From: a bacterium | GTDB taxonomy: Bacteria; UBA10199; JADFYH01 | DNA: 64,000 nt | Assembly: GCA_046346885.1 (NCBI GenBank) | Contig: JAXMHI010000003.1 | Span: forward strand, 93-64,092 | Direction: 5' to 3' | In this document: piece after piece, positions 3,401-56,406 of the stretch | How positions within the stretch are numbered: the stretch's first letter is position 1 | Layout of the letters: each line of letters starts with the position of its first letter | Notes under the pieces: model-generated | Seen by the model: only the letters and a program-made list of their open reading frames with translations | What the model was told of the DNA's origin: nothing | The model's database searches: none | Translations under genes and position numbers: made by a program

Positions 3401-6010
3401 CTCGAGGCTTAAAGGAGCGGCTTGTCCGTTCTCGCCGGTGGGAAGCCCCACCCGTCTCATGAATTTCAAGAGCGGTGCGCGGAGAGCGGAAGGTTCGAAA
3501 TTCGAGGTGGGAGGAAGGTTTCGAACGATCGCCTCGTCTAACTTCTCCCCTTCGAAGCGAAGAAAGGGATGGCGCACATTCGCGAAATAATGCTCGAAGG
3601 CGGAGATGAACGGTACTGTCCGTTCGCCTAAGTTTTCCTCGCCGGCGAAGAAGGCCAGGTCCCGCCTCCAGTTTACGGATGCATGCGCGGGGAGGGCCGG
3701 TTCCGAATTTCCCCGGGTGAGGCGGTGGAAGAGCAGGCGCGAAGAGGGGTCGATGACCGGCGCGCTCCAAGAGGCGCCTTCCCGCTCCATTCGTTCGAAA
3801 CGTTGCCAGGTTTCCGGAGAGGGCAACGGGAGACCGTGGGAATTGAGGAAGCTTTCCATCAGGTTTCGGTGAAATTTTGGATGGGTTCCCCCGGGCAATA
3901 GCAGGTAACGCTCCGTCATGAGGGAGCGGAGGATCCTCAGCCGGACGATTTCCTGGAATTGGGCCGGCGAAAATTCACCCGAACGGGAGGCCAAGTCTCC
4001 CAAGACGACGGTTGCGCGAATTTCCGCCGAAAGAGGGTCGGCGGGCGCGAAGAGGACGCCGAGCGGTTGGGAGGAAGTGGGCGAGATGCCCTCGTAGCGG
4101 ATGGTTTGGTTTTTCAGCCGGATTTCTCCGCGGGTGCGGGCGTGCACGTAGGTCGCCTCGAAAAAACGAAAAAATTCCCGGTAAAAATTCTGCATCGCCC
4201 GCACGCGGTGGGGGGAAACCCAGGCGGGGTTTTGCCGAAGGTTCGCGAGGAGGGAGGCGTGTTCCGCGTGAGACTTTCGAAACTCTTCCAGCCGCCCCGA
4301 TAAATTTTCCCGCGTGATTTCCCCGGAAGGGAGCGGGATCTCTTCCATGCCCGTAAGCTCGAATTCGCGCATTCTTCCGTCCAACAAGCGAAAGGCTTCG
4401 TCCACCGTGCCGTCGACGGCGGAAGCGAAGGGCTCCCGCTCGAAAGGAATGCGGCGCGTGGTATCCAGGGAACGCAACGTTTCGCCGCTAGGTGCCAGGA
4501 CGATGCGGTAGCGGGAAGGTTTTTCGGAGGGTGCGTGAAGGGATTCGCCGTCGGCTCCCACGATGGGCATCGTGGTCTCGAAATAATTCCGGTAGCGCAG
4601 GAAGGTGAGGAAACGGTGTATTTCTTCCCTTTGTTCCCCGTTCGTCGAAAGCGCTTCTGCCAAGCGATCCAAGTTTTCCAAGTGCATTTTTCTCGTCCGG
4701 CCCTGCCGGTATTCGGACGCGGTGTTTTCGCTCACTTTCCAGGAGCGCGCCAAATCTCCGTCGGTGGCCCTTTCCGTCGCTTGCAGGCGTCCGCGAAGGA
4801 GGGTTTCAAGATTGAGATGGGCGTAATCGAGCTCCTTCATTTCTTGGGGAAAGCGAAGAATGAGGTCGCCGTTTTCGTCCGGTTCGAAACCTCGGAATTG
4901 TTCAGGGTGGGTGAGGCGAAGCGCGTCGAAGGGGTCGATCTCGAAACCCCGCGATCCGCCGTTAAGATAGCGGAGTACGCCTAAGAGAAGGTGGAGATCG
5001 CCGGGAACGTGCGGCCGTTCCCCTTCCTTTCCTTTGGAACCCCAATGGAAAATCGTGGCGCCGGTGACACCCAAATCCGCCGCGCTCAACTCTCCGCGGG
5101 TGATTTCGAGGCGGGTTAAGTATTCGCCCCAGCGCTCGCCGGGAAGTGGGATTTCGGGCCTCACTGGTGTTTTCGTAGACGCTTCCGAAAGAGGGCGGGG
5201 AAGGGCGTTGTTTTCTTGGGTCGGGTCTTTGATGGAGCTCATCCAGACCTGCGAGGGGGCGTTCACAACTTCAGAAGGGTTTTCATGAGTGGAAGAAATC
5301 TCAAGGGAGCCGGTTGCGGGTTGAAACCCTTCTTGTGGCCCTTCCAAAGAACGTAGGGGGAGGGGGGCTTCCGGCGTTTCCAACCCGGATTCGAAGGCAT
5401 GGATCCCCGGCATCACGAAATGGGCGAAACCCATTCCCACTCCCAACTGAAGATTGGTGGCCTCCGCGTGAAGGAATTGTTGCGCCAGTGTGCCCTCGGG
5501 TGCGGGGCCGAGCCCAAGCCTCGCCGTGAGATGATTGCCCGCCACCATCGCGGTATCTTGAAAGAGATGTTGTGCGATCACGTTTTGTCCCACCGCCGCG
5601 GCGCCGCCGATTTTGAGGAGGCCGAAGTTGAGGAATGAGGCGCGCCATCGATGCCAAAAACCCCCTTCTCCAGTCGAGGGAGTAGATTCCGGACGTAAAA
5701 TTCCATTCATCGCTTCAAACACCGTCACTTCGTTCGCCAATCCGATCGTATTGGCAAGCAAACGGAGGGGCAATCTTTGAGATCCTAAAATGGACATTGC
5801 TCCCATGCGCCCCAAACGGTACGCCACTCCCCCGGCCATCATGGCGGCCATCGAGCGCCAATCGGTGGCTTCCTGCACGAAATGGCTCACGAGGCCGTCC
5901 ATTTGCGCTTGCGCGGAAAAGAGGCGGGATTCTTGCGCGAGGGAAGTTTGGGAAAAGCGGAGAAGAAGCGTCTCGGAAGCGGAGAAAGAAAGTGAAGTGC
6001 CGGCAGTCAT
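401..6010 (-). CDS. 1869-aa protein, family copy P2: N-terminal module (aa 1-215), Pro/Ser linker, two XRE-like HTH motifs, then about 1400 aa of unrecognised sequence
   Basis: A single uninterrupted 5.6-kb ORF with an ATG start. N-module blocks include WRSMAAMMAGGVAYRLGRMG, WHRWRASFLNFGLLKIGG, GQNVIAQHLFQDTAMVAG and PEGTLAQQFLHAEATNLQL. HTH-like segments are ELSAADLGVTGATIFHWGSKG and GDLARSWKVSENTASEYRQG. Confidence 0.85.
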   Translation of the reverse strand: MTAGTSLSFSASETLLLRFSQTSLAQESRLFSAQAQMDGLVSHFVQEATDWRSMAAMMAGGVAYRLGRMGAMSILGSQRLPLRLLANTIGLANEVTVFEAMNGILRPESTPSTGEGGFWHRWRASFLNFGLLKIGGAAAVGQNVIAQHLFQDTAMVAGNHLTARLGLGPAPEGTLAQQFLHAEATNLQLGVGMGFAHFVMPGIHAFESGLETPEAPLPLRSLEGPQEGFQPATGSLEISSTHENPSEVVNAPSQVWMSSIKDPTQENNALPRPLSEASTKTPVRPEIPLPGERWGEYLTRLEITRGELSAADLGVTGATIFHWGSKGKEGERPHVPGDLHLLLGVLRYLNGGSRGFEIDPFDALRLTHPEQFRGFEPDENGDLILRFPQEMKELDYAHLNLETLLRGRLQATERATDGDLARSWKVSENTASEYRQGRTRKMHLENLDRLAEALSTNGEQREEIHRFLTFLRYRNYFETTMPIVGADGESLHAPSEKPSRYRIVLAPSGETLRSLDTTRRIPFEREPFASAVDGTVDEAFRLLDGRMREFELTGMEEIPLPSGEITRENLSGRLEEFRKSHAEHASLLANLRQNPAWVSPHRVRAMQNFYREFFRFFEATYVHARTRGEIRLKNQTIRYEGISPTSSQPLGVLFAPADPLSAEIRATVVLGDLASRSGEFSPAQFQEIVRLRILRSLMTERYLLLPGGTHPKFHRNLMESFLNSHGLPLPSPETWQRFERMEREGASWSAPVIDPSSRLLFHRLTRGNSEPALPAHASVNWRRDLAFFAGEENLGERTVPFISAFEHYFANVRHPFLRFEGEKLDEAIVRNLPPTSNFEPSALRAPLLKFMRRVGLPTGENGQAAPLSLEGFSDAVFAHYLHQFYRLHPFTTRGGLVNDAALIHQILEERLPSFPHFERENVLRQLDQRITEYNSRNPVLRIYGLEARRTNDSDPFLPQGLERWVQGRIGEYLRQFPEAEGTLFEPLLYAALPPLLKTLETGERPAPAQIEHSLREAQERLSELQIVAEDSPYALDLLRVLVNQIHLHERSMEALSWLIPEFVSLHRYHSGFHDSAQLGRDLQRIFREHTFSHLFRPEPLPLRALILRTVGDRFAPYDSIREDVAKGYEVIYQELLNHFSHRYRSLEENFTLAVDAAVTHRETAQFWKDFSDCARVDQKDLTDSHAVVLRLRDLERFFDHFLHRPERLLSERILEAIESWETVSEAQASSEEGEAPVAIAEAVAPNTEVFPVENPPSLPASLFDRLGALPEIRGDGPPLQGAKAARAMNRFITRREIPREAEKELVRAARQHMTEKDMSGKSFLDLISEKFDARGFVEGKPAPFAEDVQKCRQEIEDLLIPLFERQTEIYLKHREAILASPEISFSDAEQAPLDLSRPLPALREKVEREMPELDFQRTDAQIEKGIPILLERFRGFAEIELPQLSYLFLKLSYLPVNLLTRDQGAPRDVPAIFRELWDAGLAAAQGVSLPHYLHQRTRELTRIYEKARGEYLRSLSASPEKLQALLSAFPEIRGMNDRGPLLPDFLQNVPTLRIPGMETTVKAAHRLLRLEEGHPARNAFLQMLFTVPAGENPAGLSHRILTFYLKNRSGVWNTPLRDMPYLEESWREDERILGDLWELPHFQPSSEEDIKNERAYLIELWRKPSPTEDDLRTRKQTSFMVYFSISLMQLIMATKDQKHAASQFSRAYYPLCGRLMYLGVSPSLLLPAFRNRLIAAYQGERRKFLNGLNYPAILASLPEIERIPMGALQMFENRYRDAPGFRGRSENSLYFSLLLTLQLLKKADLLDLPNMNKEIELYQKNARQGLQSLAIFYLEHRQALLPQLERMEVNHDDHFNDLLADLFGRRLPH

Positions 6011-8843: not shown

Positions 8844-10334
8844 CTAAGACAGGGAGCGCCCGGTCTTATGACGGTAGAGGAAGAATCCCAGGACCGACAT
8901 GAAAATACCGAAGAGAAGAGTCAAGCCTCTGGCCGACACCGGATTTCCGGCATTCAGAGAACAGCCGCCGCTGCTGCTCATTCCGTCGAAGGGATTTCCA
9001 GGAATCGTCTTTCTGGCCGCGATGGTGAGGGGGGATTGCTCGAGATCGATTCCCAGCCAAGATCCTCCTTGCGGAGTCAGTTCCGTGGCTGATTTTCTCA
9101 AAAGCTCCGCCAGGTTTAGAGAGCCCGAGGAACCAAAAAGCGCGATTTCATGGCTGTTGTCGCCGAAAAAGGCGTCCCATTTCGCGATTTCGACGCCGTA
9201 GTCGGGAGTGGAGGGCGAGTAGACGCCCGAGGCTTTCATCAGTCGGCTTACGAGGTCCACTTCCTCGGGGGGCAGGCAGGCCTTTCCCTCTGTTCCGCAA
9301 TCGGAGATGAATTTATTGAAGCGGTCTAGCGTCAAGTTGGGGAAAGCCGCATTTTGTCCCACGAGCGCCGGGTAGTTGATCGCTTCGATTTTTTGCTGAG
9401 CGGATTGGAAGGACTGAATGCCTTGCTGCAAAAGATTTTCCGCTTCGGTGATCTTGTTCTGATCCGCTCCGGGCAGGCTTCGTTCCTTTTCGAATGCTTG
9501 ATAGGCCTTTTCGACGGCGACTTCAAGATTCGATCCGGCCTGCCCGATGCCGTCCACGGGAGATTGCAGAGCCGTGTTTTGCAAGACATCCGAGAATGCG
9601 ACGAGGTTTGATGGAAAGGTGTTAAGTTCCGTTTTCAGGTCGCTGACGGCATTCAAAACTTCTTGATCTCGTCCCGCGGAATAGGCGGCCGCGCCCCTCG
9701 CAAACCCGATGAACATCCGAACTTCCTGCGACAAGAATTGAAGGGACTTGTCTCCCATGTCGCCCGCTGCATGGAAATCGTCCACCGTCATAGTTTGGCC
9801 GCTTCCGATGGAGACCAATTCCGGGATGAGCTGGTTCACCTCGTCGTCGGTGGCGGGGACGTAGATCGGGCCGTTGCCCACGTTCATGGCGCTGACGTCG
9901 CAAACGGGATCCCAACACCAGGAAATCAACCAGTCCGCGCCTTGTCCGATGAGTGTTCCGGCGGTAGCTCCGGCAAGGACCGCCGCGGCGACTCCGGAAA
10001 CGGTGGTGGCGGTGGCCAGCGTGGCTTCCGCCGCCGTGACGGCTGCGGCCGCCGATTCCATAGCCGCGACGGTCTCCGCCGTGGTTGCGGCGGCGGCGTT
10101 CGCAGCGGCGAAGGCCGCTTGGGCCGTCGCCAAGTCTTGTTTAGCCGCAGCGAGAGCTGCCGCCGCGGTGGCGACGGCGGCAGCAGCCGTTTTTGCCGCA
10201 TCCGCGAGGTAAGCCGTGTAGCTTTTGGCTTCATTCCAAAGACCGTCGGCCTTTGACGTGGCCACGCTTCCGAGGCTCGTATAAAGAATGAGCGCCGTTG
10301 CCACGGCTTTTCGAATTTTTGATTGAATGGACAT
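8844..10334 (-). CDS. Secreted Ala-rich protein (496 aa) with a C-terminal sorting-signal-like tail
   Basis: Signal peptide, then about 100 aa of poly-Ala/Thr coil. The C-terminus SSSGGCSLNAGNPVSARGLTLLFGIFMSVLGFFLYRHKTGRSLS is Gly-Gly-Cys, a TM helix and a basic cluster. GGAGG RBS present. Confidence 0.8.
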   Translation of the reverse strand: MSIQSKIRKAVATALILYTSLGSVATSKADGLWNEAKSYTAYLADAAKTAAAAVATAAAALAAAKQDLATAQAAFAAANAAAATTAETVAAMESAAAAVTAAEATLATATTVSGVAAAVLAGATAGTLIGQGADWLISWCWDPVCDVSAMNVGNGPIYVPATDDEVNQLIPELVSIGSGQTMTVDDFHAAGDMGDKSLQFLSQEVRMFIGFARGAAAYSAGRDQEVLNAVSDLKTELNTFPSNLVAFSDVLQNTALQSPVDGIGQAGSNLEVAVEKAYQAFEKERSLPGADQNKITEAENLLQQGIQSFQSAQQKIEAINYPALVGQNAAFPNLTLDRFNKFISDCGTEGKACLPPEEVDLVSRLMKASGVYSPSTPDYGVEIAKWDAFFGDNSHEIALFGSSGSLNLAELLRKSATELTPQGGSWLGIDLEQSPLTIAARKTIPGNPFDGMSSSGGCSLNAGNPVSARGLTLLFGIFMSVLGFFLYRHKTGRSLS

Positions 10335-10549: not shown

Positions 10550-13500
10550 ATGAGTCCCGTCACGGGTCAAATCGACAACCGCTATTCTGTTATCCGCATG
10601 TTGGGTGAAGGGTTCACGGGAGAAGTATATTTAGTGGAGTCTTCGGAAGGCCGTTTCGCGCTGAAACTTCTCAAGCCCTTTTCCGATCGGCGTCTCGAGG
10701 AAAGCATCATCCGTGCTTTTAAATTCGAGTTCGGTTTTTTGAAGGATTTGAGACACCCGAACGTGGTCCGTATCCAAGATTTCGGGTTCGACGATACGCT
10801 AAGACGGTTTTACTTTACCGAAGAATATCTCGACGGGAAGCCGCTCAACGATTTTTGCAAGGGCGCCTCCCCCGAGCTGATCGGAAACCTTTTCATCCAA
10901 TCGATCGAGGGACTCCAAGCAATTCATCGGGCCCATATTCTTCACGGCGACCTTAAAGGCAGCAATCTTCTGGTGATCGAAGAGGAAGGCGGTCCGGTTA
11001 TCAAGATCATCGACTTGGGCCTTTCCGATCCCCGTTTTCCCTTTACCGCCGGTACGCCCTCGACGATGGCGCCGGAGAAGATTTTGAAAGACCACGTGGA
11101 CGAGCGCTCCGATCTTTATTCGTTGGGAGTGGTCTTCTACCAGATCTTCACCGGATCAAATCCCTTCATCGGGAAAAACGTGAAGGAGACTTACCAAGCC
11201 CATCTCGCTCTGAGACCGCCCAAGATCACCTTGAAAAATCCCCAGGTACCTTCTTATTGGAACGAGATTTTCGACTGCCTGCTCGAGAAGAACCCCGCCC
11301 ACCGCTACCGGGACGCGGGCGCGCTGCTCGAGGCTATCGACTTCGCCAAGCCGCAAAAAGCGGGGAAGAAAAAAGTAAAGCCCTGGCGGCCCGAGCGTTG
11401 GGTGGGGCGCGAAAAGATCGTTGAGGAAGTGAGCGGGAAGCTGAAGGCGTTCTTCGAGAAAAAAAACGGCCCCGCGAAGGTTTTATTGCTCTTGGGCGAG
11501 AAAGGGGTGGGGAAAAGCCGCATCGTACAGGAAGTGAAGTATCTTTTCCAAATGGAGAAAGTGGAAGTGTTCGAGTCGAAACCGGGCAGCCTCTTTCCCC
11601 CGTCTTCGGAAGAGCCTCTTCTATGGGTGGTCGACGAGGGATCGCGTTTTTCGCCGGAGGAGCGGTCGCAGATATTAATCAAGATGGAAAAAAATTCCCC
11701 GTCTTGGGCGGCGCTTCTCTCCCTTTTGCCGGAGGAGGGGGAAGATCTCCTTTCCGACTTCGAGAAAAAGGGGGTCGAGGTTTCCAGCGTCACCGTTCGC
11801 CCCTTCACGCGCGAGGACTTAAACGAGTTTTTGAAGGAGCTCACCGACGTGAAGGAGGTTCCCGATCCGTTCTTGGACGGCTTGTGGGAGAAGACTCACG
11901 GCAATCCCCGTCTGGTGATCGGCCTGCTTGAACACTTGGTCGCGGACAAACGGCTGGTCGACGCCCGCGGCCATTGGAACCTTTCCATTTTCAAGGAGGG
12001 CGGCTTCGATCTGAGACCCTTGCCCTTGGACCTCTCCGAGATCGACCAAGCTTTGGTCATCTTGCCTGCGGGCGATCACAAGAATCGCACCGAATTGTGG
12101 ATCAAGCGCAGCGAAGAGCTCCTTAAAAAGAATTTGATCGACGAAGCGAGCGAGTCGTTAAAAAAAGCGGAAGAGGAAACCCAAAAGGTTCAGGACCTCT
12201 CCCAAAAACTCCACTTCCGCTCGCGCATCTACGAGAAGGAGGGGTGGAAGCTCATCCGCGAAGGCCACTTCGACGAGGCCCACAACCGCATGGAGCGGGC
12301 CCTCGCCCTCTTGGAAGAAAGCACGGTGATGGACGAGGTGCTTGAAATCCGCCTCCATAATTTCGTTGCTTGGCTCTATTGCCAGGAGGGAAAGTTCGAC
12401 GAGGCCATCACGCTCTTCGAGGAACAGCAGCGTCGTGCGGAAAAACTTCCCCCTGCCGAACAGCAGCGCGTCCTCAATAACGAATTGGGGCAGGCGTATT
12501 TGATGAAAGGGGATCTGAAGCGGGCGATTTTCTTCCTCGAGGCGGCCTTCGATTTTTACGAGAAGGTCGGCGACTTGCCCAGCCGCATGAAGGGGCTCTA
12601 CAACTTGGCGGAAGCGCACGCGCAGGCCAAAGATTATTCCAGGGCGATCCAGTATTATCTGAAAGCCGCCGAGATGTCGCGATTCCACCGCAACTTCGAG
12701 CTTTTGCTGCGTGCCTACAATGGCTTGGGGAAAACTTTCCACCTTCAAGGGAACTACAACGAGGGCTTGAGTTATTACGAGCGCGCCTTGGAACTTGCCC
12801 GCTATCTCGAAGATTATTTGAGCGCCGCGGCCATCGCGCAAAACATCGGTTCCATCCAGTCGGAGCGTGGGGATTTCGAACCCGCCGATGCCCACTTCGA
12901 GCTTTCGCTCAAGATGCTGCGCAAGCTTTCCCAATTGAACGCCCACGCCAAATACCTCATCTGCCGAGCTTTGCTGGAGAAGGGCGATCTCTACCGCAAG
13001 CAGAAGAAATTCAAGGACGCGGAAGAGCTGATCCGCGACGCTTTCCAGCTCACCCAACAGGAAAGCTCCCTCGCTTCGTTCCGTTTCTGGGTGCTCTACA
13101 CCCAGTCGCAGTTGGAAAGAGACCAAGGGAATTTCGAGAAACTCAAAGACCTCATGGCCGAGCTGATGCCTCTGGCCGACGACGGCGAGAAGCGGGATCG
13201 TTGCCGCGAGTTGCTGCAGGACAAAACGATGACGCCGGTAGTGGCCCCTGCAGAAATCCATCGCACCCGCGCCGAAGCCATTCCCGCCTCACCTTCCCGT
13301 TCGGGGGCCTTGGAGGCCTTGATTCGGGTGGCGCGCTGGCTCGCCTCCGAAAAGGATCCCGAGCGGCTCTTGCCCCTCATCATCCGCCAGGCAACCGAGC
13401 TTTCCGGGGCGGAGGCGAGGTCGTGCTCTTGGAAGACGCGGGAGGCAAGATGGTCCCGCGCGCGAGCGTAAATTTGAGTTTGAACGAAACGCTCGCCCAG

Positions 13501-15079
13501 ATGAGCCAGAAGATGGCCGCTCAGGTTCTGGCTACGGGAGAGGTATTGCAGACGGGCAATGCCCAGCAAGACGACCGTTTCCGCATTTACGAATCCGTGG
13601 TGGATTTGGGGCTTCAATCGATTCTCGCCCTGCCCATCCGCAGCGAAAATCGGGTGATGGGCGTTCTCTCCCTGGTGCACCGCCACCGGATGAACGCATT
13701 TCAGGACGTCTCTCTCGAGCTCATGCTCGCCTTCGCCGACCAGGCGGGGATTGCGCTCGAGAACGCCCGTTTGGTGAAGAGCTTGGAAGAGGCGCAAGGT
13801 CGCCTGTCTAGGGATCTCCAACAAACCCAAGAAGAGCTGGATGAGGTCCGCCGGAATATTTCCGGGGCCGAGGTGCTCAAGCGTTTCATCGGCGAGAAGC
13901 TCATCAGCGGAAACAAGGCGATGGGCGAGTTGTTCAGCGTGGTGGAACGTCTGCGCGACACCGATCTTTCCGTGTTGCTTCATGGCGAATCGGGGACGGG
14001 CAAAGAACTTATCGCCCGCTCCCTCCACCGCAAGTCGCGGCGCGCTGCGAAGCCGTTCGTGGCGGTGAACTGCGCGGCCTTGCCGGCCAACCTCATCGAA
14101 AGCGAGCTCTTCGGTTACCGGGCCGGCGCCTTTACCGGGGCCACGCGAGACAAGAAAGGGCTCATCGAGGCGGCCCACGAAGGCACCCTCTTTCTCGACG
14201 AGATCGCCGAACTCGAATTGCCCCTGCAAGCCAAGCTGCTGCGCGTGCTCGAAGAGCGGGAGGTGACGCGCTTGGGGGACGTGAAACCCGTTGCCGTCGA
14301 TTTTCGCCTCATTTCCGCTTCGCACCGGAACTTGAAGGAAGAGATCGTCCTGCAGAAATTCCGCGAGGATCTTTTTTACCGCATCTGTGAGATCGAGCTA
14401 AAATTCCGCCGCTGCGCGAGAAAGGAAGATATCCCGCTGTTGGCTCAGGCCTTCATCGACGAATATCTCGGCAAAGAAGGGGGCGCAAAGAGAAGAAGGA
14501 GGAGGAGGAGAGGTGCGTTTAAGGAGGGATCTCTTAAAGCTTCTCATCGATTATTCTTGGCCCGGCAACTGAGGGAGTTGGAAAATGTGATTCGCGTCGC
14601 CACGGCGCTGCGCAAAGGGAGCATTTTGCACACCGAAGACGTTCCCGAAAGCGTGCGGGCTTCGTGGGGCGATGCGAAGAAAAAGGCATCGGCGATCTCC
14701 CCGCCGGAACCCCTCGCGACTTTTCCCCAAACGCCTCTCCTTCCACTTTGTTCGACCCGAAAAAAAGTTGGCAAGAAATGGAGACGGTGGCCCTCGCCAA
14801 ATCCCTCCTCCATTTTGGTTTCGACGTGAAAAAAGCCTCGGAGGCCTTAGGCTGCGCGGTTTCGAAGCTCTATCAGCGGATGCGGGAGTACGGGCTCGAA
14901 AAGCGGAAAGATGAATTTCAAACCCATCCTTTCATTTATTCTCCCAAGAGAGCTTCTTTGGAAACCCTCAAGCGGCAAGTGTTTGCGGGGCTTTAAAATA
15001 TTGTGAGAACAGCCCCTATCAAGCCGCCCGCCTTTTGAAAGTGAGTCCGGGGATGGTGTATCAGTGGATGCGTTCTTAA
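10550..15079 (+). pseudogene. Ser/Thr kinase - P-loop NTPase - TPR - GAF - sigma54 AAA+ - HTH regulator (EBP1), broken by at least 5 frameshifts (sequence error or pseudogene)
   Basis: Parts lie in ORFs 10550..13471, 13201..14829 and 14664..14996, plus an untracked tail ending LKYCENSPYQAARLLKVSPGMVYQWMRS* at 15079. It is collinear with intact paralog 46612..51369. Motifs: HGDLK, GEKGVGKS, GESGTGKE, GAFTGA (14125..14142), and DYSWPGN/RELENV split by a frame change. Confidence 0.8.
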
Positions 15080-15190: not shown

Positions 15191-15206
15191 TGGCATTTCC
15201 ATTGCT
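15191..15206 (+). promoter_or_regulatory. sigma54 (-24/-12) promoter
   Basis: TGGCATttccaTTGCT, with exact consensus spacing. Confidence 0.65.
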
Positions 15207-15498: not shown

Positions 15499-15514
15499 TG
15501 GCATCCATGTTGCT
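15499..15514 (+). promoter_or_regulatory. sigma54 (-24/-12) promoter for 15563..16000
   Basis: TGGCATccatgTTGCT with exact consensus spacing, about 50 nt upstream of the ATG. Confidence 0.65.
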
Positions 15515-15562: not shown

Positions 15563-16000
15563 ATGGCGACGAAAACGATGGGTTTAAGCTTTCATGACGG
15601 TAAATGTTACGCGCAGCAATTCGTGGATAATGGAAAAGGCGGAAAAGATTATCGTGAAGTGGAATGGGATTTAGCGAAGGGCAAGCCGGTGGTGCATACG
15701 CCGGAGAAAAAATCGGCGGAGATGGCGAAGGCCAAGGGCGGACTTTCCACTCTCGTGGGCGGCGGAAAACCCGCGACCACCCCTAAGAAGAATCTTTTCG
15801 ATCCTAAGCACCATAAACCGCAGTTCGCTTCGCCGACTTTCATGGCGGACGTGAAGGCGAATGCGACTCCCAACAAAAAGGGCAAGGTGGATGCTCCCGT
15901 GGTGAAACCGCTCACGGCCCCCGAAGTGACGCCCACCCCGATGACGAGATACGCGCTCGCCCACGGCACCTCGATCGGCTACGCGAAGAAGTCTGCTTAA
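15563..16000 (+). CDS. Lys/Pro-rich hypothetical protein (145 aa), no signal peptide
   Basis: ATG with an AAGGAG RBS 7 nt upstream. A terminator follows the ORF. I recognise no domain. Confidence 0.7.
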   Translation: MATKTMGLSFHDGKCYAQQFVDNGKGGKDYREVEWDLAKGKPVVHTPEKKSAEMAKAKGGLSTLVGGGKPATTPKKNLFDPKHHKPQFASPTFMADVKANATPNKKGKVDAPVVKPLTAPEVTPTPMTRYALAHGTSIGYAKKSA

Positions 16001-17373: not shown

Positions 17374-18420
17374 ATGTTTACACGAGATTTTTCATTCGAG
17401 TACCCGCAAGAATTGGTCGCCCAAGAGGGCCTCGCCGAGCGCGACGCCTCGCGCATGATGGCGCTCGACCGAGGCCGTCAAACCATTGCCCATCGGGTGT
17501 TTCGCGACTTACCTTCTTACTTCAATAAAGGCGACCTGCTTTTGCTCAACAACACCAAAGTCCTGCCCGCCCGGCTGTGGGGAAGGAAAAAGTCCGGCGG
17601 AAAGGTGGAGATCTTGCTCATCCGCCCTTGGCGAGGGCAGGCGTGGGAGTGTTGGGTCCGCTCTCTCAAGGGTTTGCAAGACGGAAGCGAGATTTTATTT
17701 TCAAGAAACGGCGCCGACTTCGCCGCCCGATTGCGTTTCGAGCCGGAAGAGAACCTAAAGACGATCGAGTTTCCTCCCGACGTTCCGGTTCTCGATTTCA
17801 TGCGCGAGCAAGGGGCGGCCCCTCTCCCGCCTTACATTAAGCGTCCGGAACCCCGAGTCGGCGACCGCGAACGCTATCAAACCGTCTTTGCCGAAAAAGA
17901 AGGGGCGATCGCCGCGCCGACCGCGTCGCTCCATTTTACGCCCCGAATCTTGAAAGAGCTTTCCGAGAAGGGAGTGGAAATTCGATATCTCACCCTTCAC
18001 GTGGGCATCGGCACCTTCCAGCCGGTCACCTCGGAAAATGTGGAGGATCACCGGATGCAGGAAGAGTTTTACGAGATTTCCGAAGAAACGGCGGAGGCCG
18101 TTCGGTGGGCAAAACGGGAAGGCCGCCCGGTGACGGCCGTCGGGACCACTTGCGTGAGGGCGGTAGAGTCTTATTTTCAAGATCCTTCCGTCGTTCCACC
18201 ATCGCCGGGGACGCTTCTCTCCACGCGGCTTTTTATCCATCCCGGCTATTCTTTCCAAATCGTCGACCGCTTTCTCACCAATTTCCACCAGCCGGAATCG
18301 ACTCCCCTTTTCTTGACGAGCGCCTTCGCGGGAAAAGAATTCCTCTTCCGCGCCTACGCGGAAGCGATCCGAGAGAAGTATCGCCTCTTCAGCTACGGCG
18401 ACTGCATGTGGATTTTCTGA
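17374..18420 (+). CDS. queA: S-adenosylmethionine:tRNA ribosyltransferase-isomerase
   Basis: 348 aa. FDFxYPxELIAQ-like N-terminus, VLPARL, PLPPYI and HFTP motifs, typical length. Confidence 0.9.
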   Translation: MFTRDFSFEYPQELVAQEGLAERDASRMMALDRGRQTIAHRVFRDLPSYFNKGDLLLLNNTKVLPARLWGRKKSGGKVEILLIRPWRGQAWECWVRSLKGLQDGSEILFSRNGADFAARLRFEPEENLKTIEFPPDVPVLDFMREQGAAPLPPYIKRPEPRVGDRERYQTVFAEKEGAIAAPTASLHFTPRILKELSEKGVEIRYLTLHVGIGTFQPVTSENVEDHRMQEEFYEISEETAEAVRWAKREGRPVTAVGTTCVRAVESYFQDPSVVPPSPGTLLSTRLFIHPGYSFQIVDRFLTNFHQPESTPLFLTSAFAGKEFLFRAYAEAIREKYRLFSYGDCMWIF

Positions 18421-18450
18421 AAATAAAAAAGGCCCCTTGCGGGGCCTTCT
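18421..18450. terminator. Bidirectional hairpin terminator between queA and 18504..19016
   Basis: AGGCCCC-TTGC-GGGGCCT, flanked by an A-run upstream and a T-containing tail downstream. On the minus strand it reads as stem plus TTTTTTATTTT. Confidence 0.6.
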
Positions 18451-18503: not shown

Positions 18504-19016
18504 TTACATCTGCGGATCGGAAAGCGTCGCTTTCAAGGTCTTGAGCATTTGCGGATCGGAAAGCACCGTCTGCAAGGCCTTGATCATTTGGGGATCGGAA
18601 GCGGCCATCGTCTTCACCACGTTGTACATCTTCTCGTCGGCGAGCAGGGTGTTCACCGCGGTATCCTTGTCCATCTGGGGATCCGAAGAAGCGAACTCTT
18701 CTCCCTTGATCATCTGGGGATCGGAGGCCGTCAACATTTGAGGATCGGACGCGACGAGCATTTGAGGATCGGAAGAAACGGCGTTGGCCTTGATCATTTG
18801 GGGATCCGATTCCACCGTCTTTTCCAAGGGCAACATCTGAGGATCGGAATAAGCCCGCACCGCCTTATTCATTTGGGGATCCGAAAAGAATTGATTGAGC
18901 GCGCCGTAGAGAGTCGGTTTCGCCGCCCGAACCGTCGCTTGTCCTGAGAAGGCTTTTCCTTGGGCTCCCACCGTCGCAACCACTAAAGCTACTGCAACTA
19001 ACCACTTCCTGACCAT
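18504..19016 (-). CDS. Secreted repeat protein with 10 copies of the pentapeptide SDPQM (170 aa from the internal ATG)
   Basis: Signal peptide MVRKWLVAVALVVATVGAQG. An AAAAGGAGAAG RBS precedes the ATG at 19016. SDPQM recurs 10 times and the protein ends exactly in ...LSDPQM*. Confidence 0.8.
   Translation of the reverse strand: MVRKWLVAVALVVATVGAQGKAFSGQATVRAAKPTLYGALNQFFSDPQMNKAVRAYSDPQMLPLEKTVESDPQMIKANAVSSDPQMLVASDPQMLTASDPQMIKGEEFASSDPQMDKDTAVNTLLADEKMYNVVKTMAASDPQMIKALQTVLSDPQMLKTLKATLSDPQM
18507..18884 (-). repeat. Coding repeat: 15-nt unit TC(N)GATCC(N)CA(R)ATG, 10 copies, irregularly spaced
   Basis: On the plus strand, CAT(C/T)TG(C/A/G)GGATC(C/G)GA recurs 10 times between 18507 and 18884. 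Confidence 0.85.
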
Positions 19017-19069
19017 TTTACTTCTCCTTTTAACAAGGGTTATCAAAATCAACTGCTCCCCATTGCATA

Positions 19070-19085
19070 AGCAAATAATTTGCCA
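19070..19085 (-). promoter_or_regulatory. sigma54 (-24/-12) promoter for the SDPQM repeat gene
   Basis: The minus strand reads TGGCAAattatTTGCT with exact consensus spacing, about 55 nt upstream of the ATG at 19016. Confidence 0.65.
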
Positions 19086-19331
19086 AAACTTTTATTTTTA
19101 AAAAATGATATATTTTAATTAGTTATGAGTTTTTTGGAGAAAAGGGAAAGGGGAGTGAGTTCCCCATGGTAGGAGGGCAAGATTTGTTCCAAAATGTTAA
19201 TAAATAAATAATATTATATAGTTAAGTTGTTTTTTGTTCACAATTGAGCAAAAATGAAAATGATGGGCATACACCCCATTTTGAGATATCTTTTTGTAAA
19301 AAGTGAAAGATTTAAAGAGGTTGAGAGAGGA

Positions 19332-22300
19332 TTAGGGAGGAGGAAACTCAATCACCAAACGAAAGGTTCCATTGTATTCATCGGCCACATCCATATGGAC
19401 GTAAGTTCGAGAACAAGGGAGGGGTTGATTGCCTGAGGGAGTTCTCACGGATGCACCGGACATGACGATCGCATCGTTTTCCGCCACCGTGGAAGTAAAC
19501 TCACGCACGTTTCCAATCAAATCCAGTAGTCTTTGAATCCGGCCCTGCGCGTCCCGATATCCAAAAATGGAAAAGTCTCGGTAAAGGTCGGGGCCTAAAG
19601 GATGGGTGCCGATGGGGTGGGAATGGGTTCCTTTATCTAGATCGGCGTGTACCAGACGCGAAGCGAAGAAAGTTCTGCGGTAACGGTAACCCCATGGGAA
19701 GGACCAATCGAAGGTGTTGCGGGCGGCGATCTCTTTTTGTTCCGCAGAGACGATCTTGTAATTCCGTCGGTCGCGCACCGACCTCCAGTATCGATAAGCG
19801 TCCGCCGCTCGGTACGGAATTGCATGAATGGGTTGATTGTTCAAGATGGGGTCGCCACGGAGCGAGGGATGACTCGTGGGATCCGCAAGAGTAAAGATAC
19901 GATTTTGACCTTCTCCTTCGGACCGGATCCTCCAGTGGAACCGGGCGCCTTCGAACGCGGTTGCGAGAACCGATTCCCAGTCGGGGTTTTCGGGAAGGTT
20001 CCGGGGAGAGATCCGAGGTTGATCCCGCGGGATCAAATTTCTCAGCCGTTCAATGTGTCGGAAGGCCTCTTCGAATCGCCCTTGTCCGACCAGATGATTG
20101 ATTCCCCTCAATTGGCTTTCGATGAAGAGGCGGTATTCCCCCACGGTGATGGGATTGGAAATGGCGAAGGTGTTGAAGGAATGGGGGCGTTCCGGAAAAC
20201 TGATGACGAGGGCGGGGTCGTCGAAGCGATAGATATTATGTCCGATGACGCCTTTTCCGCCATGAACGAGTGAGAAGCCTTCGGGAACCGGCGGGGTCAA
20301 GCGCAGGTTCAAGTTTAGGGAACCCCGAGTGGCCGAACCCCGGTTTAAGATTCCTTGTCGAACTTGCGGAAGTGTGATGCGCAGAGGATAACGCATAAAC
20401 GCATAATCGGGATGCGATAGCTCGAGCACGTAGTACCCTGCCGGCAAGTTGAGTCGGTCTTGAATGTCGCTTAAGTTTCCTTCCAGAAGGGGAGCCCCTT
20501 CCCGGAAATAATCTTTTTCATATTCTTCGATGGGAATCACCCGCGCTTGGACATTTTCAGGGGTCATTTGGGGGTTTAAGTGGTCGGATATTTTTAATTG
20601 AACGCGGATTTGTCCTTCCAGCGCGTCCTTCATGCTGGTGGTGCGCTCGTTTTCCGTCGCCACGTCGTATTCGCGGATACGGTCGATGAGGGTTTGGCGC
20701 ACCTCGTCGGGCATCGTGTTGTCGGCATTGACGAGCCTCATCCAAGAGAGTTCGGCGATCATCTTTCTCGCCTCGGGCACGGGATCGGAATCGGTCAAGC
20801 GTCTGAGTTCCTGCACCGCGCTTTCCACCGCCTGGTCGAAGGCCGCCGGAATGTTCTTGAGGGCGTACAGAGGATCCAACATGCGTTTTTCCAAGTCTTC
20901 AGTGATCGGACGGTCGGTGCGATATTCACTCCAAGCGGCGTGAAGTTCTTGTTCCAGAGACCTGCGTCTTTCCAGCAGGCGGCGGATACGGATCATTTCG
21001 GCGCGGCCCCAAACAAGCAAAAGCGCCTCGCGTAATTTGCCGGCCGATTCAAAGCGTCGGGTCGGATCCGGGTCTAAGGCCCTTCGGCAGACTTCCTCGA
21101 TTTTATCGTAAAGTTCGAGTGGGTAGTCTCCCTGTATGACGTCCCGAAAGGCCGGGGGCTGCAGGAAGAAGTCGGGATGGGTGGAGAAGAAGCGTGCCTG
21201 TGACCCGTTTCTCCCATGGGTAAACGGGTTCTGCCCCGTTATCATTTCATACAGGATGGCACCCAAGGCGAAAACGTCGATGGAGCGCGGGTTTTCAATT
21301 TTCCGGTTTAGAAACCTCTCGGGGGCGATATAGCCTGGTGTTCCAAAAGAGACGCCCACCAGGGTAATGTCCTTTTCAAGGCGGTGAAAAAGTTCCGGAG
21401 AAACTTCTGGTCGGGGTTCGGCGGGAAGTTCCTCGAACGCTTTAGCCAAGCCCCAATCGACGATCCGGACCTCGCCGGTATCGGTGATACGGATATTGCC
21501 GGGCTTCAAGTCGCGGTGGACGATGCCGTCTCGGTGGGCGGATTCGATCCCCTCGCAAATGCGTAGAAAGATGTCGAGCTTCCTTTGGGCGCTGAGCGTC
21601 GACATCACGTCCGAGAGGTCGTTGCCGGGCAGGTATTCCATCACAGGAACGGTACGGCCATTGGGGAGCGTGATGAAGTCGTAGATCACGACCACGTGCC
21701 GTCGATCCATATTGGCGGTAATTTTTACCTCGTTGCGAAAACGAGCGTCCACTTCCACCGTATCTTTTTGGCTGCGATCCCGTTCGGGGCGCGGCACTTT
21801 GATCACCGCCAGACGCTCCAATTGCAGGTCTCTTACCTTGATCACGTGTCCGTAGCCGCCGGAGCCTAGATAATCCAATACTTGGTAGCGGCCTTCCAAC
21901 TCCATTCCCACTTGCAAGCCGGTTTCTTCCGGAGGAAGTCGCGTGACCAAGGATTGGGCTTCTTTTCGAGTGTCATGGTCGACGTCGGTCGGGTCTTGGG
22001 GGGCTTCCGGAGCTGGAGAAGGGGCCGCTTTTTGCCGAGGAACGGGAACGGCCACTCGTGTTTGGGCTTCTTGGGGGTCTTTGGCCGGGGAAGCAGCGGG
22101 GGAAGGAGGAGGAATTTCCGGGCGTTGTTCCACGACTTCCGCCGCCGGAGCGTCTAACGTGGTTGCGAGTTTCGGATCGGCGGGAGGAGTCGCCGGACGA
22201 GGGGGTGAGGGAGGAGAGTCCTTCCCCGCCAATTCGGGCGGACCGCCGACCATCGTAGTGGTGGCGGGTGCGTCGCGATTCGTGGGGAAACCGCTGTCCG

Positions 22301-23138
22301 CGGGTCCGTCGGGCTTATCCTTGTCATGGATGGAGGACATGGCGACGATGAGAGGACCCTTTTCCGGAAAAACTCGGTCTCCGCTTCTTCGTCCTTCGAG
22401 GTTCCCCCTCTGTCCGGTGGCGAGAGCCCAGGGAGCTCCTTCGCCTTCCGAATCGAAAAAGGAACTTCTTCCTTCCGTTTGGGGCGTTCGAAGGGTGAGT
22501 TCCAAGCCCCGTTCCAAGGCGGGAAGCCCCGGCGCGAAGGTGTGCACCAGGCTCATGCCGAAACTTAATTGCAAATTGGTGATTTCCGCGTGGAGAAATT
22601 GCTGGGCGAGCGTGCCTTCGGGCCCCGGAGAAATTCCCAACGCCGCGGTGGCGTGGTGGCCCAGCACCATGCCGGTGTCTTGCACGAAATGTTGAAGGAT
22701 GACGTTTTGGCCTTCGGCCAAGTGGCCGGCGAATTTCAAGGTTCCGAAACTGACGAACGAGTTGGCGAGCCCCTCGCGAAATCCGCCCCGGCCGTTCCAA
22801 CGCCAAAGATTGGGGTTGGAGGCGCCTTCGCCCGATAGGCCGAGCAGCGAGCGGTGGCTGGTTTCAAAGGCCAATACTTCGGCGCTTAATCCGATTCCGT
22901 AGGAAGCGGTTTGAATGAGGGACGCGGCTTGCCCCGCCCGGGAGGCCAAGGCCATCGTGCCGATTCGACCGAAACGGTAGGCAAGCCCGCCTATAGACAT
23001 GGCGGCCAAGCTTCTCCAATCGCTCGCCTGCTCCAAGAAGCCGCTGACCAAGCCATCCACTTGAGATTGGGCGGAACTCGGCTCCGCATAAGAGGCCAGC
23101 GTGTGAGAAGACAGCCTACTAAGAACCGTTTCCGTCAT
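19332..23138 (-). CDS. Family copy P3: N-terminal module, about 190-aa Pro-rich linker, Hanks Ser/Thr kinase, middle region, C-terminal FGE/SUMF1-like domain (1268 aa from the internal ATG)
   Basis: The start is moved to MTETVLSRL (ATG at 23138) by alignment with the other copies. Kinase motifs are GSGGYGHV, AVIKV, HRDLKPGN, DWGLA and GTPGYIAPE. The C-terminal HAIPYRAADAYRYW...FPWG...HPIG...GNVREF resembles FGE-sulfatase domains. Confidence 0.85.
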   Translation of the reverse strand: MTETVLSRLSSHTLASYAEPSSAQSQVDGLVSGFLEQASDWRSLAAMSIGGLAYRFGRIGTMALASRAGQAASLIQTASYGIGLSAEVLAFETSHRSLLGLSGEGASNPNLWRWNGRGGFREGLANSFVSFGTLKFAGHLAEGQNVILQHFVQDTGMVLGHHATAALGISPGPEGTLAQQFLHAEITNLQLSFGMSLVHTFAPGLPALERGLELTLRTPQTEGRSSFFDSEGEGAPWALATGQRGNLEGRRSGDRVFPEKGPLIVAMSSIHDKDKPDGPADSGFPTNRDAPATTTMVGGPPELAGKDSPPSPPRPATPPADPKLATTLDAPAAEVVEQRPEIPPPSPAASPAKDPQEAQTRVAVPVPRQKAAPSPAPEAPQDPTDVDHDTRKEAQSLVTRLPPEETGLQVGMELEGRYQVLDYLGSGGYGHVIKVRDLQLERLAVIKVPRPERDRSQKDTVEVDARFRNEVKITANMDRRHVVVIYDFITLPNGRTVPVMEYLPGNDLSDVMSTLSAQRKLDIFLRICEGIESAHRDGIVHRDLKPGNIRITDTGEVRIVDWGLAKAFEELPAEPRPEVSPELFHRLEKDITLVGVSFGTPGYIAPERFLNRKIENPRSIDVFALGAILYEMITGQNPFTHGRNGSQARFFSTHPDFFLQPPAFRDVIQGDYPLELYDKIEEVCRRALDPDPTRRFESAGKLREALLLVWGRAEMIRIRRLLERRRSLEQELHAAWSEYRTDRPITEDLEKRMLDPLYALKNIPAAFDQAVESAVQELRRLTDSDPVPEARKMIAELSWMRLVNADNTMPDEVRQTLIDRIREYDVATENERTTSMKDALEGQIRVQLKISDHLNPQMTPENVQARVIPIEEYEKDYFREGAPLLEGNLSDIQDRLNLPAGYYVLELSHPDYAFMRYPLRITLPQVRQGILNRGSATRGSLNLNLRLTPPVPEGFSLVHGGKGVIGHNIYRFDDPALVISFPERPHSFNTFAISNPITVGEYRLFIESQLRGINHLVGQGRFEEAFRHIERLRNLIPRDQPRISPRNLPENPDWESVLATAFEGARFHWRIRSEGEGQNRIFTLADPTSHPSLRGDPILNNQPIHAIPYRAADAYRYWRSVRDRRNYKIVSAEQKEIAARNTFDWSFPWGYRYRRTFFASRLVHADLDKGTHSHPIGTHPLGPDLYRDFSIFGYRDAQGRIQRLLDLIGNVREFTSTVAENDAIVMSGASVRTPSGNQPLPCSRTYVHMDVADEYNGTFRLVIEFPPP

Positions 23139-23228
23139 AAGAAAAAAAGGGAAATGCCTGAAAAATAAAAAATTATTCGATTGCCCTTCCTCTTCGGCAA
23201 CGCTTAAGAGAAGGTGCGAGGAAATTTT

Positions 23229-24370
<1,142 letters not shown>

Positions 24371-52962: not shown

Positions 52963-53043
52963 GTCCCCCCTTTTTAACTTATTATACCGTGTTTCACCCA
53001 TCTCTATTATCCGTTTTTTGTCGCATCAAGTTTCGTTTTTTAA

Positions 53044-56336: not shown

Positions 56337-56390
56337 ATTCCTCTCCTTTTTTAAACATCGGCCCACTAGCGGGCTTTCGAGAGAAATAAA

Positions 56391-56406
56391 AGCAAGCGGA
56401 ATGCCA
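56391..56406 (-). promoter_or_regulatory. sigma54 (-24/-12) promoter for 55002..56336 (and possibly 53102..54901)
   Basis: The minus strand reads TGGCATtccgcTTGCT with exact consensus spacing, about 55 nt upstream of the ATG at 56336. Confidence 0.7.

Follow-up and report, generated by a model that had tools for sequence, protein, structure and literature searches.

A tenfold SDPQM-repeat protein with a conserved FGE-like Ser/Thr kinase neighbor in a bacterium of the UBA10199 lineage

The window analyzed here is a 64,000-nucleotide stretch of contig JAXMHI010000003.1 from a bacterium of the UBA10199 lineage. On its minus strand, at 18504..19016, lies a gene for a 170-aa protein in which the pentapeptide SDPQM occurs ten times, and directly upstream on the same strand lies a gene for a multidomain Ser/Thr kinase (19332..23138). 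Comparison with related metagenomic loci shows that the SDPQM gene and the kinase gene form a conserved two-gene module.

The SDPQM-repeat gene and its product

The gene opens with an ATG at 19016 and closes with a TAA stop at 18504-18506, as given by both the open reading frame (ORF) list and the sequence. Its product reads MVRKWLVAVALVVATVGAQGKAFS up to a likely signal-peptidase site and GQATV...LSDPQM from there on. SDPQM occurs exactly 10 times, with its Ser at residues 45, 57, 70, 82, 90, 98, 111, 140, 153 and 166, and the tenth copy supplies the last residues of the protein (...LSDPQM-stop). The first-pass annotation of the window had claimed both the copy number and the terminal position, and both were confirmed from the ORF. 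Neither SDPQM nor SDPxM was found elsewhere in the six frames of the 64-kb window. When the mature sequence was shuffled 20,000 times, no 5-mer occurred more than three times; tenfold occurrence of SDPQM is far beyond chance. The spacers between copies measure 3-24 residues, not the 2-30 first reported, with periods of 8, 12-13 and 29 residues. The dipeptide [LI]K or the tripeptide [LI]-x-A, described earlier as the usual continuation of the motif, follows seven of the nine internal copies and is absent after the other two.

The ten 15-nt copies of the motif differ only synonymously (Ser TCC/TCG, Pro CCC/CCT/CCG, Gln CAA/CAG), with zero non-synonymous changes. An antisense ORF at 18549..18947 on the plus strand encodes HLGIG/HLRIG units, which vary at the positions where the minus-strand frame changes synonymously only. 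Selection thus acts on the minus-strand frame, and the antisense ORF is a by-product. The motif Asp codon is GAT in 10/10 copies, and the 513-bp gene holds 13 GATC sites (18507-18884, minus) against about 3 expected. A GATC/Dam signal at the DNA level was considered and set aside, since GAC encodes the motif Asp in 5 of the 46 Asp-containing copies of homologues and since GAT before Pro is already preferred in this genome (60%, or 27:18, compared with 42% of all Asp codons). The uniformity of GAT probably stems from codon-pair bias or from shared ancestry of the copies; some room is left for a DNA-level role of the GATC sites.

Residues 1-24 (18945..19016, minus) form a predicted Sec-type signal peptide, consisting of MVRK, the hydrophobic core WLVAVALVVATVGA and A-F-S before a Gly. 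The 19-residue Kyte-Doolittle maximum of the protein is 1.62 and falls on residues 6-24. Cleavage after residue 24, between the S and G of A-F-S-G, would leave a mature protein of 146 aa, one residue more than the 145 aa given at first. All relatives have positively charged N-terminal residues and small residues at -3/-1 (A/V/S-x-S/A). The mature protein contains no His, Cys or Trp, and as it has no Cys, it is not a lipoprotein. From these sequence features, conserved in all relatives, we infer export via Sec. The earlier description of a real gene for an exported repeat protein is supported.

The repeat array proper comprises motif copies 1-7, at residues 45-115 (18672..18884, minus, from the codon table), with the 15-nt copies at 18870-18884, 18834-18848, 18795-18809, 18759-18773, 18735-18749, 18711-18725 and 18672-18686. 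Residues 116-170 (18507..18671, minus) make up a conserved C-terminal region with invariant alignment columns. It comprises D-x-AVNTLLAD-x-x-MY-x-V-x-KT and, behind it, three 13-residue units, each opening with SDPQM (18585-18599, 18546-18560 and 18507-18521, minus, the last being the C-terminus). An AlphaFold2 model of the protein has low confidence (predicted local distance difference test score, pLDDT, 44; predicted template modeling score, pTM, 0.18) and places helices at 36-57, 115-124, 128-140, 142-152 and 155-165, with coil at 58-114. The model suggests a mature protein built of a short N-terminal helical segment, a flexible S-[D/P]-P-x-M array and a small helical C-terminal region, and further suggests that the motif in the C-terminal region resembles a classical Asp-Pro helix start.

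Relatives and conservation of the motif

Among about 15 billion proteins, the SDPQM family numbers seven known sequences, that of the window included, from about four lineages (related loci are designated L001, L002 and so on). A word-indexed search of 5.8 billion clusters gave three relatives, an exhaustive phmmer search of 1.84 billion representatives gave the same relatives and one fragment, with three of its matches counted as true relatives, and a metagenome scan gave two further loci, L004 and L005. A profile search with all members added nothing new, the word-indexed and profile searches together having hit five of the 5.8 billion clusters, and no relatives were found in GTDB species genomes, plasmids or phages. 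Five phmmer matches (P0005-P0009) proved to be unrelated low-complexity repeats and were discarded. One relative is labelled as a deltaproteobacterial metagenome-assembled genome (MAG).

The relatives are 40-58% identical to the SDPQM protein, and all members retain S-[D/P]-P-[Q/I/V]-[M/L], with essentially no change at Ser, Pro and Met and with variation at positions 2 and 4. The spacer sequences are not conserved, and between 8 and 12 copies occur per protein. Before the motif Ser, which is itself invariant and has a fixed Pro at +2, position -1 is preferentially Ala or Ser. Behind the Met, [LI]K follows in the window and L001, and G[RKQ] follows most array copies of L002-L007; two residues past the Met, the frequency of Lys is 0.43 and that of Arg 0.15. 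Because the variation within the gene is synonymous and the motif is kept in all relatives at this level of identity, selection acts on the peptide motif, in agreement with the first-pass annotation. The same annotation had named loss of the motif in homologues as a mark of low-complexity drift. That check was run, and because the homologues keep the motif, the repeat is not low-complexity drift. We read S-x-P-x-M as a likely short linear recognition motif under purifying selection.

The most conserved part outside the repeats is D-x-AVNTLLAD-x-x-MY-x-V-x-KT together with the three 13-residue units behind it. The C-terminus falls on the motif in five of the six complete relatives (SDPQM, SDPQL or SDPVM). 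L007 is the exception: its final two copies have decayed to SNPEL and TDSK, so that the protein ends in ...TDSK, while its array copies are strict. Because these C-terminal copies decayed, the first of them to a generic S-N-P cap, and the array copies did not, the comparison suggests that two different constraints act on the array copies and on the C-terminal copies.

Loci L002 (position 1322) and L004 (positions 1322-1423) are 99.9% identical over 2,182 bp and are set apart by a single 102-bp indel that keeps the frame and corresponds to three array units. This is either a real polymorphism in repeat number or a collapse in short-read assembly.

The neighboring kinase and its conservation

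The kinase gene (19332..23138, minus; Pfam Pkinase, 3.5e-39) is assigned a start at 23138 (MTETVL...) by homology, and its longest ORF runs from a TTG at 23240. The product is accordingly 1,268-1,302 aa long (19332-23138/23240). In the 1302-aa numbering, the catalytic domain occupies residues 452-730 (21051..21887, minus) and is intact, with the HRDLKPGN, DWG and APE motifs. Residues 985-1302 (19335..20288, minus) form an FGE-sulfatase-like C-terminal domain (PF03781). The window domain alone scores 23.8 bits against a cutoff of 23.3, and all five kinase orthologues match, the best at 2.2e-9. PDB profile matches of this domain are to FGE-fold proteins only (ToxD, PvdO, PorK/GldK, SUMF2, CalU17). 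There is no invariant Cys among the five orthologues, and since a conserved active-site Cys pair is lacking, identity with a catalytic FGE is ruled out and the domain is termed FGE-like. An AlphaFold2 model of it, built from two sequences, is unusable, with a pLDDT of 40. The kinase also has a Pro-rich linker, and its similarity to LanL and LanKC is limited to generic kinase-domain similarity.

The Kyte-Doolittle 19-residue maximum of the kinase is 1.1-1.2 in three orthologues, with no transmembrane segment. As there is no membrane-spanning hydrophobic segment, the whole kinase is taken to be cytoplasmic, and a transmembrane kinase with an external FGE-like domain was rejected on the same ground. 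The N-terminal region of about 260 aa (22400-23138, minus; residues about 35-290 in the 1302-aa numbering) is conserved, Gly/Ala-rich and moderately hydrophobic; it has no Pfam or NCBIfam family and no clear transmembrane helix, and may be a membrane-peripheral or novel domain.

L001, L004 and L005 each have an orthologous kinase immediately upstream in the same orientation, and L002 is 99.9% identical to L004 there. A kinase of roughly 1,200-1,300 aa thus adjoins the SDPQM gene in every locus with enough upstream sequence. It is the only conserved neighbor; the others differ between loci, and the flanking genes of L005 and L002 have no counterpart in the window. A search for a nearby protease or modifying enzyme had been proposed at first, and it returned this conserved Ser/Thr kinase with its FGE-like domain, which the first-pass annotation had missed, and no conserved protease. 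The C-terminal region of the kinase is as rare as the SDPQM protein, with relatives only in related metagenome contigs and the MAG and in 0 of 185,579 GTDB species genomes.

Ser/Thr kinases with a C-terminal DUF323/FGE-sulfatase domain are common in cyanobacteria, and the neighboring kinase has the same architecture, differing in its additional conserved N-terminal domain of about 260 aa. In cyanobacterial Ser/Thr kinases the C-terminal FGE-like domain has been called DUF323 (PMC2176072), and in cytoplasmic STAND NTPases FGE-like domains are C-terminal sensor modules (PMC12803255). No motif-repeat partner of known kinase-DUF323 proteins is described in the literature searched.

The pair sits between queA (17374-18420, convergent to the SDPQM gene) and tgt; beyond the kinase are tgt, secD, secF and recJ. 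In E. coli, queA and tgt belong to one cluster with secDF. In the window, tgt (23214-24268, plus) is split into two overlapping ORFs, of which 23214-24047 matches positions 2-245 of the TGT profile and 23942-24268 matches positions 244-328. The split indicates a frameshift, from a sequencing or assembly error or in a pseudogene.

Transcription unit

A sigma54-type -24/-12 element, TGGCAA-ATTAT-TTGCT, is found at 19085..19070 on the minus strand, with its GG at 19084/19083 and its GC at 19072/19071. It has one mismatch to TGGCAC-N5-TTGCW, a pattern that at one mismatch gives four matches in the window against 1.2 expected, so that a single match alone is not significant. In the window, L001, L002/L004, L003 and L005, TTGGCAA-N5-TTGCT is kept without change amid AT-rich DNA that has diverged, and in the window, L001, L002, L004 and L005 the element lies 67-70 nt from the ATG. 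Sigma54-activator domains are encoded in the window at 13201-14829 and 46612-51369. Since the element is invariant in related loci amid diverged DNA, a sigma54-dependent promoter for the SDPQM gene is well supported, and the promoter proposed in the first-pass annotation stands.

Intergenic alignments show a conserved dyad, TGGGGA-N6-TCCCCT, at 19149..19166 (minus), a candidate activator-binding (enhancer) site. In every locus a TGrGG-N8-CCyyN dyad lies 79-80 bp upstream of TTGGCAA, and L001 has a compensatory G-C to A-T change; in the window the dyad also scores as a weak terminator-like hairpin. A regulon shared through this palindrome was rejected, the palindrome being not enriched elsewhere in the window. 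Just past the kinase stop codon, a hairpin with a T-rich tail (19263..19279, minus) is terminator-like or may be a second dyad, and L001, L002 and L005 have a comparable TGGnGA...TCCCCA element after the stop codon of the kinase.

The Shine-Dalgarno site AAGGAG (19024..19029, minus) lies 7 nt before the ATG, and its GGAG is invariant in the alignment of related loci. The sigma54 element, the dyad and the Shine-Dalgarno site hold invariant positions across four lineages. A strong intrinsic terminator at 18427..18450 (minus), with a 10-bp stem of which 6 pairs are G-C and a T-run, is common to the SDPQM gene and the convergent queA. As the promoter and this terminator delimit the SDPQM gene, the unit is monocistronic. 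Between the -12 element and the start codon (19017-19069, minus), the DNA of the window and its equivalents in L001-L005 is unusually conserved. This stretch shows TTGCTnAnGCAAnG, a TTGC-N4-GCAA palindrome overlapping the -12, and after it TTGnTAA...TTG...AGGAG, and may be an operator or a leader-RNA element.

The family is tiny, is confined to one uncultured lineage and has an unstable copy number, as might be expected if the repeat were a functionless product of low complexity or slippage in a dispensable orphan gene. Such a repeat would not be expected to keep its motif across orthologues of about 50% identity with synonymous variation only, nor to have a conserved promoter, ribosome-binding site, signal peptide and neighbor. 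We regard a functionless repeat as extremely improbable.

Comparison with known families and structures

Pfam gave no convincing family for the SDPQM protein, only weak local matches; NCBIfam and PADLOC gave no match, and the literature searched has no mention of SDPQM or SDPIM repeats. With PDB also lacking a specific match, the earlier statement that no described family has this repeat is upheld. The SDPQM family, its motif and its pairing with an FGE-like kinase are undescribed in the resources searched, while exported proteins of tandem short motifs, kinase-DUF323 architectures and sigma54-driven small exported proteins are already known in kind.

The weak matches bear on whether the protein is a structural helical-repeat protein, in which S-D-P-x-M would be a helix N-cap (Asp-Pro) followed by a hydrophobic Met. 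The product would then be a periplasmic helical scaffold or a Met-lined holdase chaperone like STI1/DP, induced by sigma54 under envelope stress, with the kinase as regulatory input only. In a profile search of PDB with the C-terminal region, the best matches were designed proteins of helical repeats whose helix caps read L-S-N-P-E-I (nine weak stretches with a summed E of 1.8e-9), and the Sti1 DP1 structure 2LLV matched at E = 0.79. In Pfam, Cohesin_HEAT (PF12765) matched a single 26-residue stretch, 143-168, with 23.6 bits (cutoff 21 bits; 7e-5), XPC-binding matched weakly at E = 0.0056, and the STI1/HOP DP domain (PF17830) matched at 9.9 bits against a cutoff of 29.1 bits (E = 0.91). Membership in the HEAT repeats was rejected because the units are 13 residues long and not helix pairs of about 40 residues, and the Cohesin_HEAT match is best described as an apparent local helix-cap resemblance; membership in PF17830 was rejected on its score.

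Like the STI1/DP domains (Hop/Sti1 DP1-DP2), XPC-binding domains and S-[DN]-P caps, the SDPQM protein is Met-rich and appears to form short amphipathic helices from S/N-D-P-x-[M/L]. Predicted helices open at the motif in residues 115-165 and 36-57 of the low-confidence model, the spacers read from the sequence are amphipathic (i, i+1, i+4, i+7, i+8 patterns), and periods of 12-13 residues dominate in all lineages. The differences are that its units are 8-13 aa long and not helical hairpins, and that it is bacterial and exported. No STI1 model reaches threshold. In the low-confidence AlphaFold2 model, residues 115-165 hold four short helices, the STI1 domain being a compact bundle of about five. 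A structural motif also fits the array poorly. There is no room for a helix behind the array copies, where Gly follows in most copies of L002-L007 and 3-residue spacers occur in the window and L001; since a Gly or such a spacer comes next, helix capping alone does not account for the array motif. Nothing follows the last copy, and the degenerate copies of L007 lie in the C-terminal region while the array copies remain strict. Given this and the low confidence of the model, we consider a purely structural repeat unlikely.

Composition raises the question of Met/Asp chemistry, that is, a periplasmic Cu(I)/Ag(I) buffer or a sacrificial Met sink for oxidants, like MrpX. Met accounts for 12 of 150 residues (8%, with the first 20 residues removed), each motif pairs an Asp with a Met, and both the periplasmic location and a stress-type sigma54 control would be compatible with this. 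In being small, exported, Met-enriched and under stress-type regulation, the protein resembles PcoE/SilE, the CueO Met-rich insert, MrpX and ZraP/CpxP/Spy, and E. coli zraP is also sigma54-dependent. It differs from these proteins in lacking His, Met clusters and the LTxxQ motif and in being without a Pfam match. Membership in CpxP/Spy/ZraP was rejected because no LTXXQ Pfam match appears even at E <= 10, and membership of the PcoE/SilE/CopC/CusF type because of the absence of His, Cys, Trp and Met clusters and of cop/cus/pco domains in the larger window ORFs. There is no MxM or MxxM, and the nearest Met pair (M130/M137) is 7 residues apart. SPPIM copies have Pro in place of the Asp, the strictness with which Ser and Pro are kept would go unexplained, and Pfam scans of the larger window ORFs and a few related-locus ORFs gave no cop, cus, pco or msr domains. 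We judge Met/Asp chemistry highly improbable; metal binding, one of three roles offered in the first-pass annotation, thus becomes the weakest of them.

Coupling of the repeat array to the kinase

We tentatively favor the reading that the SDPQM protein is a multivalent docking or ligand array functionally coupled to the neighboring kinase, with a probability of about 0.35. This reading draws on the pattern of constraint, in which motif positions 1, 3 and 5 are fixed, positions 2 and 4 and the spacers are free, copy number is variable and the motif is independent of what comes next. A repeated docking motif was also among the three first-proposed roles and seems the best fit of them. The core motif recognized by FGE is CX[P/A]XR or SXPXR (PMC2459300). 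Because canonical FGEs read (C/S)-x-P-x-R, with the same 1-3-5 pattern, the FGE-like domain of the kinase is the prime candidate for a reader of the array.

The likeness to the sulfatase motif and FGE (PF03781 fold) goes further, as both motifs are pentapeptides with Ser or Cys first and Pro third, both are carried by an unfolded protein with a signal peptide, and the neighbor here has an FGE-like domain. The SDPQM protein differs in having Met or Leu in place of Arg at position 5, no sulfatase domain, and ten copies where sulfatases have one; the domain differs from FGE in being without the conserved Cys pair and in being fused to a kinase. A type I sulfatase maturation motif was rejected on the basis of position 5 and the missing sulfatase domain, the 1-3-5 pattern alone being common. 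By analogy, the FGE-like domain might read S-x-P-x-M directly, which we consider unlikely. The fuller proposal, that the domain is a dedicated S-x-P-x-M reader with re-tuned (C/S)-x-P-x-R recognition and that the pair constitutes a new ligand- or substrate-kinase system, we consider rather unlikely.

In the mechanism we envisage, a monocistronic sigma54-dependent gene would yield a Sec-exported protein of about 146 aa displaying the motif array, and the kinase would contact either the unfolded pre-protein before export or fragments after their re-uptake. Alternatively, the partner of the array would be periplasmic and the kinase would control expression only.

Several points weigh against coupling of the array to the kinase. 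The kinase has no transmembrane segment and the mature SDPQM protein is predicted to be exported, which would put them in different compartments; because the FGE-like domain is cytoplasmic, the two could meet only before export or after re-import. C-x-P-x-R is not read by most proteins of the FGE fold (PvdO, PorK/GldK, ToxD, EgtB), and the likeness of S-x-P-x-M to the FGE motif is one of pattern comparison. Each of the three C-terminal copies coincides with the predicted start of a helix and looks like a generic S-[DN]-P cap, so part of the motif conservation may be structural. The AlphaFold2 models of both the array and the FGE-like domain are of low confidence (pLDDT 44 and 40). With seven members from about four lineages only, the synteny statistics are thin. 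The compartment problem is not fatal, since peptides can be taken up again after export, as happens in RRNPP systems, and Sec precursors can be handled in the cytoplasm. The latter is the case for bufferins, whose Sec-signal-bearing precursors are modified there (PMC11626156).

Contact before export would admit a version in which the kinase docks on the pre-protein while this is unfolded and phosphorylates the ten motif Ser before Sec export, giving a secreted bacterial poly-phosphoprotein or the first step of a maturation like that of peptides that are synthesized ribosomally and modified post-translationally (RiPPs). More broadly, the repeats may be an array of modification sites, the invariant Ser of the [A/S]-S-x-P units being phosphorylated by the kinase before export or O-glycosylated in the periplasm. 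The FGE-like domain would then be the substrate-recognition element and the product a poly-anionic or glycosylated exported protein. An array of modification sites would suit the invariant Ser with its Pro at +2 and its Ala/Ser at -1, and Ser sites flanked by Ala, Ser or Pro are typical of PglL-type O-glycosylation. An active-looking kinase (HRD, DWG and APE motifs) adjoins the gene, and the kinase domains of class III/IV lanthipeptide synthetases phosphorylate precursor Ser/Thr, although the similarity here is generic only; bufferins are a precedent for RiPPs with a Sec signal. On the other side, the invariant Met goes unexplained, no lyase or cyclase similarity is seen in the N- or C-terminal regions of the kinase, no glycosyltransferase is conserved nearby, and bulky or charged groups may hinder Sec export. 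We think modification sites very unlikely to be what the array provides.

Contact after re-uptake leads to a second version, in which the exported protein would be a multi-core precursor of a peptide signal, cut to peptides ending in ...SDPQM that are taken up and sensed by the cytoplasmic kinase, in the manner of Phr/RRNPP or PatS with a Ser/Thr kinase as receptor. A precursor would account for the Sec signal peptide, the kept core and varying flanks, the C-terminus on the motif in five of six complete relatives and the variable copy number. It would further make use of the Lys/Arg enrichment two residues past the Met as a candidate cleavage site, and of the adjacent receptor-like kinase with its peptide-reading type of domain. 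The gene shares with Phr/PapR/AimP (RRNPP), yeast alpha-factor, KEX2 fungal precursors and bufferins a predicted Sec signal, a candidate unit at the C-terminus, repeated cores with variable spacers between them and an adjacent cytoplasmic sensor gene. It differs from these in the absence of a TPR-type receptor, an Opp transporter, a processing protease and a modifying-enzyme cluster, and in that its non-repeat parts are conserved and apparently structured and that its cores are not identical within one protein. An RRNPP receptor (Rap/NprR/PlcR/PrgX/AimR) was rejected because the conserved neighbor is a kinase with an FGE-like domain and no TPR, and the gene set of a multi-core RiPP precursor because only the kinase is conserved beside the gene, with no protease or exporter.

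Against the precursor role as first suggested stands the absence of a conserved protease, Opp-type importer or exporter next to the gene pair, and the cores are unequal within one protein (SDPIM, SPPIM, SDPQM, SDPQL). Conservation is highest outside the repeats, in AVNTLLAD..MY.V.KT and in the N-terminal helix. L007 has an end other than the motif, and helices are predicted to contain three of the cores. A peptide precursor is in our estimate quite unlikely.

If the array is a ligand or substrate of the kinase, FGE-like (DUF323) sensor domains would gain their first concrete partner open to testing; many Ser/Thr kinases, caspase-like proteases and STAND NTPases of bacteria carry such domains as fusions. 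It would also mean that signaling has adopted the FGE way of reading a pentapeptide in a secretory protein that is not folded. In the peptide-sensing version, the pair would be a Gram-negative peptide-signaling circuit with a Ser/Thr kinase receptor and would give the first ligand for the kinase-DUF323 architecture, which is widespread. Even without the kinase link, the locus provides a new exported protein family with an unusually clean array of short linear motifs, and shows how a sigma54 promoter region is conserved in a lineage that is uncultured and poorly annotated. In practice, work on it is limited by the small number of sequences, seven, and by the lack of a known cultured host.

Other features of the window

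Many large ORFs of the window have no Pfam match at the thresholds used, among them 401-6010 (minus; 1,869 aa), 8844-10334 (minus), 41817-43508 (minus) and 57337-59319 (minus), and the source lineage is poorly sampled. The minus-strand ORF 46612-51369 encodes a 1,585-aa protein that combines a Ser/Thr kinase, AAA_16, TPR, GAF and a sigma54-activator AAA+ domain in one polypeptide. On the plus strand, an ORF for a Ser/Thr kinase with TPR (10550-13471) overlaps one for a GAF-sigma54-activator protein (13201-14829), and together they resemble this fusion architecture, divided in two by a frameshift or an overlap.

The other sigma54-type matches are at 15191-15206 (plus), 15499-15514 (plus) and 56391-56406 (minus). 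The first two lie upstream of an orphan ORF (15563-16000), just after the activator gene. The third lies directly upstream of the orphan ORF 55002-56366, the first of a series of family-less ORFs (continuing with 53102-54901 and 51469-53001) that ends at the kinase-activator fusion. An arrangement of a kinase or activator with a sigma54-driven orphan gene may thus recur in the window.

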